Assembly: GCF_003019035.1 (NCBI RefSeq)
Contig: NZ_CP027447.1
Strand: one strand, 5' to 3'
From: Escherichia coli
Lineage (GTDB): Bacteria; Pseudomonadota; Gammaproteobacteria; Enterobacterales; Enterobacteriaceae
DNA length: 64,000 nt
The notes below the pieces were generated by a model, which was not told where the DNA came from, ran no database searches, and saw nothing but the letters and a program-made list of their open reading frames with translations. Positions 1-6,465 of this stretch are shown piece by piece. The translations under genes and the position numbers were made by a program. Numbering within the stretch: position 1 is the stretch's first letter; every line of letters begins with the position of its first letter.

Positions 1-1967
1 CGCCGCAGGCCCTGACGGCGTTAAGCAATGCCGGTTTTGTTAAGCGCAGTCTTAAGGAACTGGAAAATGGCAACGTCCCGGAAATCAGCCATGAGAACGG
101 CGCTTTAATCGCCACCTTCAGTGACGGTGTCCGTACCCAACTGGCGAGCGGTCAGGCACTGAAAGAGGCCCGGTGCAGTTGCGGGGCCAGCGGCATGTGC
201 CGCCATCGCGTGATGCTGGTGTTAAGTTATCAGCGACTTTGCGCCACCACTCAGCCCACGGAAAAAGAAGAAGAGTGGCAGCCTGCAATCTGGCTGGAAG
301 AACTGGCTACCCTGCCCGATGCCACCCGCAAACGTGCACAGGCGCTGGTCGCTAAAGGCATCACCATTGAGTTATTCTGTGCGCCGGGCGAAATTCCCTC
401 AGCCCGCTTACCGATGAGTGACGTGCGTTTTTATTCCCGCAGCAGCATTCGCTTCGCCCGCTGTGATTGCATTGAAGGAACGCTGTGTGAACATGTCGTA
501 CTGGCGGTACAGGCCTTTGTCCAGGCCAAAACTCAGCAGGCGGAATTTACTCATTTAATCTGGCAGATGCGCAGCGAACACGTCACATCATCTGACGATC
601 CGTTTGCCAGCGAAGAAGGCAACGCGTGTCGTCAATATGTTCAGCAATTAAGCCAGGCATTATGGCTTGGCGGCATCAGCCAGCCGCTTATTCACTACGA
701 GGCCGCTTTCAGCCGCGCGCAGCAAGCGGCAGAGGCCTGCAACTGGCGCTGGGTGAGTGAGTCACTACGACAGCTACGGGCAAGCGTTGATGCCTTCCAC
801 GCCCGCGCCAGTCACTATCATGCCGGAGAATGCTTACGTCAGCTTGCGGTATTAAACAGTCGATTAAATTGCGCACAAGAGATGGCGCGCCGCGACAGTA
901 TCAGTGAAGTTCCTCCCATGCCGTGGCGAACGGTGGTTGGCGCAGGCATTGCTGGCGAAGCAAAGCTTGATCATTTGCGGCTGGTGTCGCTAGGTATGCG
1001 TTGCTGGCAGGATATTGAGCAGTATGGTTTACGCATCTGGTTTACCGATCCCGACACCGGCAGTATTTTGCACCTTTCGCGCAGTTGGCCGCGAAGTGAA
1101 CAGGAAAACTCACCGGCAGCGACGCGTCGGCTGTTGAGTTTTCAGGCAGGCGCGCTGGCGGGTGGACAAATTGTTTCACAGGCAGCGCGTCGCAGTGCCG
1201 AAGGCGAACTGCTATTCGCGACCCGCAACCGCTTAAGTAGCGTTGTGCCGCTGTCGCCAGACGCCTGGAAAATGCTGAGTGCGCCGCTGCGCCAGCCAGG
1301 CATTGTGGCTTTACGTGAATATTTACGCCAGCGTCCCCCCGCCTGCATACGACCACTCAACCAGGTCGATAACTTATTTATTCTGCCAGTCGCTGAGTGT
1401 ATTTCACTCGGTTGGGATAGCAGCCGCCAGACACTGGATGCGCAGGTAATCAGCGGCGAAGGTGAAGATAACGTGCTGACATTATCCCTACCAGCCTCTG
1501 CCTGTTCGCCCTTTGCTGTTGAACGCATGGCGGCGCTTTTGCAACAAACAGACGACCCCGTGAGTCTGGTTTCTGGCTTTGTCAGCTTTGTAGAGGGGCA
1601 ATTGACACTGGAACCACGGGTGATGATGACAAAAACCCGCGCCTGGGCGCTGGACGCAGAAACTGCGCCTGTAGCACCGCTACCTTCTGCCAGCGTTTTG
1701 CCTGTGCCGTCTACCGCTCATCAGTTGCTGATGCGCTGCCAGGCGTTACTTATTCAACTGCTCCATAACGGCTGGCGCTATCAGGAACAGAGTGCTATTG
1801 GTCAGGCAGAGTTGCTGGCGAATGACCTCACCGCGGTGGGTTTTTATCGGCTGGCACATGTGTTGGGACAATTTCGTAATACAGAAAGCGAGGCACGGGT
1901 AGAAGCAATGAATAACGGTGTTTTGCTTTGCGAACAATTATTCCCCATGCTTCAGCAACAAGGATGA
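1..1967 (+). CDS. yehQ: SWIM zinc-finger domain protein YehQ, 5'-truncated by window edge (frame open from nt 3)
   Basis: Frame open from window start to stop at 1967; two CxC..CxH SWIM-like motifs (CSCGASGMCRH, CDCIEGTLCEH); position immediately upstream of yehR matches E. coli synteny. Confidence 0.75.
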   Translation, partial: PQALTALSNAGFVKRSLKELENGNVPEISHENGALIATFSDGVRTQLASGQALKEARCSCGASGMCRHRVMLVLSYQRLCATTQPTEKEEEWQPAIWLEELATLPDATRKRAQALVAKGITIELFCAPGEIPSARLPMSDVRFYSRSSIRFARCDCIEGTLCEHVVLAVQAFVQAKTQQAEFTHLIWQMRSEHVTSSDDPFASEEGNACRQYVQQLSQALWLGGISQPLIHYEAAFSRAQQAAEACNWRWVSESLRQLRASVDAFHARASHYHAGECLRQLAVLNSRLNCAQEMARRDSISEVPPMPWRTVVGAGIAGEAKLDHLRLVSLGMRCWQDIEQYGLRIWFTDPDTGSILHLSRSWPRSEQENSPAATRRLLSFQAGALAGGQIVSQAARRSAEGELLFATRNRLSSVVPLSPDAWKMLSAPLRQPGIVALREYLRQRPPACIRPLNQVDNLFILPVAECISLGWDSSRQTLDAQVISGEGEDNVLTLSLPASACSPFAVERMAALLQQTDDPVSLVSGFVSFVEGQLTLEPRVMMTKTRAWALDAETAPVAPLPSASVLPVPSTAHQLLMRCQALLIQLLHNGWRYQEQSAIGQAELLANDLTAVGFYRLAHVLGQFRNTESEARVEAMNNGVLLCEQLFPMLQQQG

Positions 1968-2091
1968 AATAGTGCTTTTTATTAAGAGTTCTACTCCTGT
2001 TCCGGACTGCTCACGCCACAGTATTAGGCATATCCTATATAGCCCCTGGTGAGAGTCACCAGTTCCTTGATTAAATAAAATGGAGTTTTAC

Positions 2092-5733: not shown

Positions 5734-6465
5734 ATGGCGCTTTACACAATTGGTGAAGTGGCGTTGCTTTGTGATATTAACCCTGTCACGTTACGCGCGT
5801 GGCAGAGGCGTTACGGATTGCTGAAACCGCAACGGACAGACGGCGGTCATCGGCTGTTCAACGATGCCGATATTGACCGGATCCGCGAGATCAAACGCTG
5901 GATCGACAACGGCGTGCAGGTCAGCAAAGTTAAAATGCTGCTCAGTAATGAAAATGTTGATGTGCAGAACGGCTGGCGCGATCAGCAAGAAACATTACTG
6001 ACTTACCTGCAAAGCGGCAATCTGCATAGCCTGCGAACGTGGATCAAAGAGCGCGGTCAGGATTACCCCGCCCAGACACTCACCACGCACCTGTTTATTC
6101 CACTGCGCCGACGGCTTCAGTGCCAACAACCGACTCTCCAGGCGCTGCTGGCGATCCTCGACGGCGTACTGATCAACTACATCGCCATCTGTCTGGCTTC
6201 GGCGCGCAAAAAACAGGGTAAAGATGCACTGGTGGTTGGCTGGAATATTCAGGATACCACTCGTCTGTGGCTGGAGGGCTGGATTGCCAGTCAACAAGGA
6301 TGGCGCATTGATGTCCTCGCCCACTCGCTCAATCAACTACGCCCTGAACTGTTCGAAGGTCGTACATTGCTGGTGTGGTGCGGTGATAATCGAACCTCCG
6401 CCCAACAGCAGCAACTCACCAGTTGGCAGGAACAAGGCCATGATATTTTCCCACTCGGCATTTAA
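5734..6465 (+). CDS. mlrA: MerR-family transcriptional regulator MlrA (YehV), 243 aa
   Basis: N-terminal MerR HTH (YTIGEVALLCDINPVTLRAWQRRYGL); length and synteny. Confidence 0.9.
   Translation: MALYTIGEVALLCDINPVTLRAWQRRYGLLKPQRTDGGHRLFNDADIDRIREIKRWIDNGVQVSKVKMLLSNENVDVQNGWRDQQETLLTYLQSGNLHSLRTWIKERGQDYPAQTLTTHLFIPLRRRLQCQQPTLQALLAILDGVLINYIAICLASARKKQGKDALVVGWNIQDTTRLWLEGWIASQQGWRIDVLAHSLNQLRPELFEGRTLLVWCGDNRTSAQQQQLTSWQEQGHDIFPLGI

Follow-up and report, generated by a model that had tools for sequence, protein, structure and literature searches.

Here we have analysed yehQ, the gene for a SWIM zinc-finger protein that opens a 64,000-nucleotide stretch of Escherichia coli DNA (contig NZ_CP027447.1 of assembly GCF_003019035.1, hereafter the window). 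yehQ belongs to a set of five genes that, judged from gene content, form a self-contained module in Gamma-, Beta- and Deltaproteobacteria and in Actinobacteria; the other four encode a large WGR-DUF4132 protein (MolR/YehI), the MoxR-type AAA+ ATPase YehL, the DUF5682 protein YehM and the von Willebrand factor A (vWA) protein YehP. We propose, tentatively and with slightly less than even confidence, that YehQ serves for recognition, or as an adaptor, in an ATP-driven machine built from the five proteins, the target of which would most likely be DNA or a DNA-bound protein. What the analysis shows is the identity of the gene, its motifs, a predicted fold, the linkage of the five genes and purifying selection; the formation of a complex, the binding of nucleic acid and any role in the response to DNA damage are our inference.

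A first-pass annotation of the window had described yehQ as the last gene of a yehLMPQ cluster, downstream of genes for a MoxR-type AAA+ ATPase and a vWA protein, and had recommended that the context be compared across genomes. The upstream sequence, taken from the chromosome of E. coli SCU-301, does contain yehL, yehM and yehP, preceded in order by a molR-like DUF4132 gene (partial at the edge of the extracted stretch), yehI (also DUF4132), yehK and a gap of 577 nucleotides, and the reading frames of yehP and yehQ overlap by 4 nucleotides (ATGA). The cluster as described was nevertheless too small. Scanning with a 21-sequence YehQ alignment, with one genome per species, identified 80 loci in Enterobacterales, Lysobacterales, Burkholderiales, Neisseriales, Desulfuromonadales, Mycobacteriaceae and Propionibacteriaceae, and distant homologues at 27-39% identity were also looked up. 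When the E. coli proteins were used as tblastn queries, DUF4132, YehL, YehM, YehP and YehQ were found together on one strand in 71 of the 72 loci that have at least 9 kb of upstream sequence, with the WGR domain lying in the same open reading frame (ORF) as DUF4132 in 62 of 68. All-against-all clustering of the ORFs from about 80 loci detected no sixth conserved family beside the module, and the conserved unit is therefore five genes rather than yehLMPQ alone.

The linkage is accompanied by variation in gene order. In Burkholderia the WGR-DUF4132 gene lies 3' of yehQ instead of 5' of yehL, and the five genes are also annotated in single loci of Streptomyces, Allorhizobium and Bacillus mycoides, the Allorhizobium order being shuffled to AAA, DUF5682, DUF4132, vWA, SWIM. 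The B. mycoides SWIM protein (545 residues) aligns to residues 11-556 of the YehQ profile with a probability of 98.7%. In two metagenome contigs (L007 and L008) DUF5682 and vWA are fused as one protein and the DUF4132 protein bears ankyrin repeats; directly upstream of the module, both contigs encode an NAD-dependent DNA ligase (LigA) with BRCT and C-terminal WGR domains (L007 1-1401, L008 3-389). The strict co-occurrence of the genes, their overlapping frames and this natural fusion lead us to argue that the five proteins act together. A candidate fusion of vWA and SWIM (P0180) was discarded as an assembly artefact, the contig being full of fragmented genes.

The gene itself is a known one. 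An open frame (frame 3, + strand) extends from nucleotide 3 of the window to a TGA at 1965-1967, with its 5' end beyond the window start, and positions 1-2600 are 100% identical in DNA sequence to SCU-301 chromosome NZ_CP051751.1, where the matching ORF is annotated as yehQ, a 'SWIM zinc finger family protein' of 666 codons (L001 11967-13967; L001 and L002 denote the SCU-301 and K-12 MG1655 loci, respectively). The ORF at 3-1967 is the annotated E. coli gene yehQ, almost complete, and the name given by the first-pass annotation is thereby borne out. The frame is orthologous to K-12 yehQ, with 93% identity, the same gene spacing, yehP upstream and yehR downstream; in SCU-301 the genes 3' of yehQ are yehR, yehS, btsR and btsS. 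As the window begins 34 nucleotides past the annotated start and retains codons 13-666 of 666 (98%), including the entire N-terminal SWIM region, the earlier statement that it held only the 3' tail of the gene is wrong, and probably goes back to the 614-residue length of K-12 YehQ. Antisense ORFs of the region fall within yehQ, a gene under purifying selection, and positions 1-2700 of the window gave no Rfam match. As a finding yehQ is not new, since databases and reviews already cover the SWIM family as well as the neighbouring vWA protein and MoxR ATPase of the YehL subfamily (PMC3893208).

Two CxC...CxH SWIM-like motifs had been noticed near the N-terminal part of the frame, and both were recovered here with support from Pfam and from homologues. 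YehQ scores 29.7-33.8 bits against the SWIM family PF04434, for which the cut-off is 19.6 bits (29.8 bits at an E-value of 4e-7), and both motifs register under a lenient threshold. The four ligands of motif 1 are invariant in all 101 full-length homologues, which share 24-63% identity, while those of motif 2 are retained in 88-91 of them and, from per-column counts, appear to have been replaced jointly in about ten. At the level of secondary structure, an AlphaFold2 model has the SWIM topology twice, with strands at 39-59 leading into a helix at 79-92 and strands at 133-166 into a helix at 175-190. We regard both motifs, on this conservation, as real rather than as chance patterns.

The model also gives an architecture for the rest of the protein. 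An exhaustive profile-free search identified YehQ relatives in 877 clusters at 50% identity (E-value at most 1e-3), and the AlphaFold2 model, built from the 101-sequence homologue alignment, has a predicted local distance difference test score (pLDDT) of 94.5 and a predicted template modelling score of 0.92. In the predicted order (Table 1), N-terminal helices with SWIM1 (residues 1-92) come first, and SWIM2 (about residues 100-190), a bundle of four helices (216-311), two OB-like barrels (about 331-428 and 470-561) and another four-helix bundle (583-665) follow. The N-terminal helix and SWIM1 are the most conserved part of the family, the best-conserved 8-mers of the alignment being found at residues 19-30 and 74-87; the C-terminal bundle is missing from the Bacillus homologue and is shortened in K-12 by a stop at codon 615. 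From the model the barrels (residues 328-562) likely belong to the OB fold class: their best structural matches in the PDB, at modest scores, are RPA70, Teb1, Stn1 and HIN domains, and the second barrel has a helix between strands 3 and 4. Searches of Pfam and of PDB sequences did not place the barrels in an OB family. Pfam matched no family in residues 200-666, with residues 325-580 empty even at E-values up to 10; PDB searches, profile searches included, returned no sequence relatives of YehQ, YehM or YehP; and there is no NCBIfam model for YehQ. The structure prediction and remote-homology search that the first-pass annotation had called for gave a confident model and matched no well-characterised family beyond SWIM. 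Its conclusion that nothing further could be said of the protein does not stand, as a near-full-length sequence, a domain architecture and conserved partners can all be defined; its description of the function as unknown does, since literature searches returned no experimental work on YehQ.

Table 1. Features of yehQ and its product in the window (positions in nucleotides; residue numbers refer to the 666-codon gene).
Feature	Position	Strand	Basis
yehQ coding sequence, codons 13-666 and TGA stop; codons 1-12 lie just 5' of the window	3..1967	+	Open frame; 100% match to SCU-301 yehQ; ratio of non-synonymous to synonymous substitution rates (dN/dS) 0.083 versus K-12
SWIM motif 1, CSCGASGMCRH (C70, C72, C78, H80)	174..206	+	Translation; Pfam SWIM above gathering score; 101/101 homologues
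SWIM motif 2, CDCIEGTLCEH (C166, C168, C174, H176)	462..494	+	Translation; ligands in 88-91/101 homologues
N-terminal helices, three-stranded sheet and SWIM1 module, predicted (residues 13-95 in window)	3..251	+	Best-conserved 8-mers, residues 19-30 and 74-87; AlphaFold2 strands and helix; hhalign
Second SWIM module, predicted (residues 100-192)	264..542	+	AlphaFold2 strands 133-166 then helix 175-190; second Pfam SWIM stretch at lenient threshold
First four-helix bundle, predicted (about residues 210-325)	594..941	+	AlphaFold2 model; partly deleted in some E. coli/Shigella alleles
First OB-like beta-barrel, predicted (about residues 328-430); basic, family median isoelectric point about 10	948..1256	+	AlphaFold2 model; isoelectric point across the family
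Second OB-like beta-barrel, predicted (about residues 469-562); acidic, family median isoelectric point about 5.4	1371..1652	+	AlphaFold2 strands 470-509, helix 517-526, strands 534-561; fold matches as for first barrel
C-terminal four-helix bundle, predicted (residues 580-666)	1704..1964	+	AlphaFold2 helices 583-601, 607-623, 627-637, 641-665
Codon 615, Glu in the window, nonsense site in K-12	1809..1811	+	Comparison with K-12

YehL, YehM and YehP would supply the proposed ATP-driven core. To our knowledge, studies of the MoxR ATPases have so far left out the YehL subfamily. YehL is an AAA_5/MoxR protein (Pfam AAA_5, E-value 3.9e-34) in which the Walker A motif GxPGTAKS is found in 81 of 81 homologues and RFEE(I/L)TR in 78 of 81; its nearest solved relatives by sequence are the AAA modules of midasin (E-value 2e-9), it has weak matches to GvpN, and its score against the Pfam bpMoxR model, 18.4 bits, lies below the cut-off of 27. 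Seven MoxR subfamilies are recognised, and YehL represents one of them (PMC3893208). The match of YehP to VWA_CoxE spans the full model (E-value 7.7e-72), and the DxSxS of the YehP metal-ion-dependent adhesion site (MIDAS) is present in 84 of 84 homologues; +1 ribosomal frameshifting at codon 291 of yehP (L001 10834-11970), giving a 303-residue product, has been reported (PMC2790909). DUF5682, the domain of YehM, is listed in Pfam as a family of unknown function, and our literature search returned nothing on it. For the N-terminal 330 residues of YehM (L001 8562-9551) the predicted fold is TraB/ChaN/HopBA1/erythromycin-esterase-like, with His and Glu residues that are invariant, and about 430 residues of helical protein follow; none of the Pfam models of the TraB/ChaN/erythromycin esterase superfamily is matched by YehM.

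According to our proposal, the N-terminal SWIM module would dock YehQ onto a core of YehL, YehM and YehP, and target binding would fall to SWIM2, the helical bundles and the first OB barrel, which is basic; the target would most likely be DNA, either single-stranded or damaged, or a protein bound to DNA. The ATPase-vWA pair would then remodel this target or pass it to YehM. We assign these two roles, an N-terminal anchor and a remainder devoted to target recognition, because the N-terminal helix and SWIM1, the best-conserved stretch of YehQ, are all that it has in common with the SWIM protein found in a sister operon of Deinococcus (see below). Hints towards nucleic acid come from the WGR domain that the large partner carries, from the ligase with WGR beside the module in L007, from the OB structural matches and from the basic character of the first barrel, and on this reading YehQ probably binds nucleic acid.

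The link between the module and DNA damage is weak. molR is a listed SOS gene (PMC6590174), and in K-12 a LexA-like box, AACTGGATAAAATTACAGGG, is located at -25 of the yehF/molR start (L002 6449-6468), with an equivalent box in Intestinirhabdus alba (L015). In Deinococcus deserti a SWIM gene heads a five-gene operon with a MoxR ATPase that is radiation-induced (PMC4007540), and in D. radiodurans the proteins that mitomycin C induces under the control of DdrO include one with DUF4132 and one with WGR (PMC8533742). On a plasmid of D. taeanensis (L092 5759-13805) we found a sister operon with the order SWIM (466 residues), DUF5691, AAA_5, a small ORF, DUF5682 and VWA_CoxE, which fits the published description of the D. 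deserti operon (Deide_18730 to about Deide_18690); no relation was detected between DUF5691 and DUF4132. D. radiodurans DR_A0165, considered as a SWIM partner for the damage-induced DUF4132 protein DRA0166, was rejected as it is a small Deinococcus-specific peptide.

Several observations weigh against a nucleic-acid target and a damage role. The LexA box was found in only 2 of the 57 module loci scanned, those of K-12 and Intestinirhabdus, and none was found upstream of yehL itself; Betaproteobacteria, the source of many of the box-less loci, use the same LexA box. As the scan was negative outside Escherichia and Intestinirhabdus, a general connection of the module to SOS was given up. The D. 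taeanensis operon is a sister variant rather than an orthologue, and the alignment of its SWIM protein with YehQ is limited to residues 10-89 (hhalign). Across the family the second OB barrel, and YehQ as a whole, are acidic, and SWIM fingers can mediate protein rather than DNA contacts. Finally, the literature search on YehQ gave only a table of strains and, from cross-linking mass spectrometry, a false-positive entrapment match, the other titles being off-topic and for the most part medical or virological.

Comparison with known systems places the module near several of them without assigning it to any. As in the MoxR/vWA pairs, which include E. coli RavA-ViaA as well as CoxD-CoxE, NorQ-NorD and CbbQ-CbbO, an AAA_5/MoxR ATPase gene adjoins a gene for a MIDAS-bearing vWA protein; unlike them, the yeh module adds YehM, the SWIM-OB protein YehQ and WGR-DUF4132, and has no client gene nearby. 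Midasin/Rea1, the closest solved sequence relative of YehL, likewise combines AAA_5 modules with a substrate-gripping MIDAS domain, but does so in a single giant eukaryotic protein acting on pre-ribosomes, whereas the yeh parts are separate genes with a SWIM-OB subunit in addition. The Deinococcus SWIM-DUF5691-MoxR-DUF5682-vWA operon shares AAA_5, DUF5682, VWA_CoxE and a protein whose N terminus is built from the same helix and SWIM module, yet its SWIM protein is the shorter one of 466 residues and DUF5691 takes the place of WGR-DUF4132. Tandem OB-fold DNA binders (RPA70 DBD-A/B, Teb1, Stn1 and HIN-200) give the best structural matches to the two successive barrels of YehQ, which differs from them in lacking sequence similarity, in its modest scores and in its acidic second barrel. 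YehM, for its part, stands apart from the TraB/PrgY/GumN-ChaN-erythromycin esterase-TIKI/RRSP superfamily in having no Pfam match to it and in the fusion of its domain to the helical protein of about 430 residues.

K-12 MG1655 YehQ has 614 residues (L002 19101-20945) and carries the nonsense codon E615*, with a further 52 codons readable beyond it; the starts of yehQ and yehR lie 2125 nucleotides apart in SCU-301 and K-12 alike, and the shorter K-12 protein therefore results from the nonsense codon and not from an altered gene structure. K-12 molR is split into yehF and the pseudogene yehH. Read from its sequence, the reference strain carries a damaged module. Some E. coli and Shigella sonnei alleles have in-frame deletions of 40-43 residues within the first four-helix bundle (window positions about 726-974, residues 254-336); three such alleles (P0035, P0040 and P0047) are found in 40-84 contigs each, and the deletions end at short AGE/HY(E/H)A repeats. 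yehQ is under purifying selection relative to K-12 (dN/dS 0.083 over 666 codons), and for yehL-yehQ as a group dN/dS between SCU-301 and K-12 ranges from 0.04 to 0.10. In the same comparison dS is 0.14-0.27 for yehL-yehQ against 0.04-0.08 for yehR-mlrA, a difference of 2-6 times, and nucleotide identity is 92.6-96.3% for yehI-yehQ (L001 2813-13967) against 98.1-98.9% from yehR through mlrA. Of 5426 complete E. coli genomes, only 4 match the allele in the window at 99% identity or more. This pattern suggests that the diverged yehI-yehQ block represents old haplotypes or an import from another Escherichia lineage. The gene occupies one fixed locus in 5424 of the 5426 genomes, in 5315 of them 80% or more of a 2600-base query (yehQ, yehR and the 3' end of yehS) is matched, and the largest YehQ protein clusters are full length.

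Four rival accounts seem to us doubtful, though each explains some of these features. The module could be a chaperone for the maturation of metal cofactors or enzymes, of the CoxD/CoxE, NorQ/NorD, CbbQ/CbbO or CobS/CobT type, in which YehQ would be a zinc-bearing client adaptor and YehM would bind the cofactor through its ChaN-like domain. The full-model VWA_CoxE match of YehP, the AAA_5 assignment of YehL with its weak GvpN matches, the ChaN-like fold of YehM and the old name of molR, 'molybdate metabolism regulator', would all fit with this. Known maturation pairs, however, adjoin their client genes in the cox, nor and cbb operons, and no conserved client gene was found beside the module in about 80 loci; WGR, SWIM and OB modules are foreign to such systems, and YehM retains the His/Glu residues found in those members of its fold class that are hydrolases. 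We consider a maturation chaperone unlikely.

A role in defence against phages or in another biological conflict, which we rate as similarly improbable, would have YehQ and MolR sensing foreign or damaged nucleic acid, YehL and YehP acting as an ATP-driven switch and YehM serving as a TIKI/RRSP-like protease effector. The cassette is self-contained and occurs in varied genomic contexts, occasionally on plasmids and chromids; dS is raised across yehL-yehQ relative to the flanking genes; inactivating alleles recur, as with the K-12 molR pseudogene, yehQ E615* and the in-frame deletions; and the hydrolase-type domain of YehM is related to the toxin effectors HopBA1 and RRSP. MoxR-vWA ternary conflict systems, said to have been described by Kaur, Burroughs, Iyer and Aravind in 2020, couple a MoxR-vWA pair to extra sensor and effector proteins in a comparable way, but their accessory domains were not found here and the bpMoxR score of YehL falls short of the cut-off. 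None of YehI, YehK, YehL, YehM, YehP and YehQ has a match in PADLOC-DB 2.0, and the fixed locus and low dN/dS are likewise at odds with such a role. Nor were phage-borne copies found: the two matches in phage collections are both E. coli-identical DNA, one being full-length yehQ in the host flank of the VT1-Sakai record and the other a 79-residue fragment at the end of another record.

The most far-reaching form of our proposal is that molR/yehI and yehLMPQ constitute a hitherto unrecognised, phylum-spanning machine of five components that responds to damaged or foreign DNA, in which WGR and the SWIM-OB protein YehQ would detect DNA ends or single strands, the MoxR-vWA pair would turn this into remodelling driven by ATP and YehM would cleave a target with its TraB/TIKI-like domain. 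We put this forward as a speculative extension that is, as a whole, unlikely.

That yehQ is in E. coli a decaying remnant without present function is very unlikely. The K-12 nonsense codon, the molR pseudogene and the 40-residue in-frame deletions of several lineages could be read in this way, but dN/dS of 0.083 over the whole gene, its coverage in 5315 of the 5426 genomes and the full length of the largest protein clusters are not what decay would leave. Least credible of all is the view that YehQ is a stand-alone DNA-binding regulator or domesticated transposase-type protein to which its neighbours are irrelevant, since, although MuDR-type transposases and FAR1 regulators contain SWIM fingers and SWIM is the sole Pfam match of YehQ, the five genes remain linked across phyla even where their order is shuffled, yehP and yehQ overlap, and Pfam finds no transposase or helix-turn-helix domain in the protein.

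Some further features of the region were noted. Between yehQ and yehR, at window positions 2044-2063, there is a perfect 7-bp inverted repeat, CTGGTGA-GAG-TCACCAG, which is followed by no clear T run and was not listed by the terminator scan. The yehK-yehL spacer (L001 6887-7462) is 577 nucleotides in SCU-301 versus 306 in K-12, and in SCU-301 the near-repeat GTTGGA(C/A)CACGATGTTGCAC occurs in it at about 7103 and about 7270, as would be expected had a short element been inserted. The presence of yehP, yehQ and yehV in the VT1-Sakai Stx1 phage record is explained by flanking host DNA deposited along with the phage. mlrA/yehV (window 5734-6465), a known integration site of Stx prophages, is unoccupied in this window.

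yehQ is an E. coli 'y-gene' that has been annotated for thirty years without a function, and our analysis sharpens the question while leaving the identity of the feature unchanged. New here, all of it as prediction, are the arrangement of domains in YehQ, a module that extends to five genes and is widely distributed, the assignment of a hydrolase-type fold to DUF5682, the sister variant and the damaged copies in K-12, which make that strain, with its molR pseudogene and yehQ nonsense codon, a poor host in which to test the system. If the DNA-sensing reading of YehQ is true, it would provide the SOS and DNA-damage field with a new accessory system and MoxR-vWA ATPases with a new use. If the module should prove to be a five-component machine acting on damaged or foreign DNA, the core genome of E. 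coli would contain a bacterial DNA-damage or immune system of a new class.

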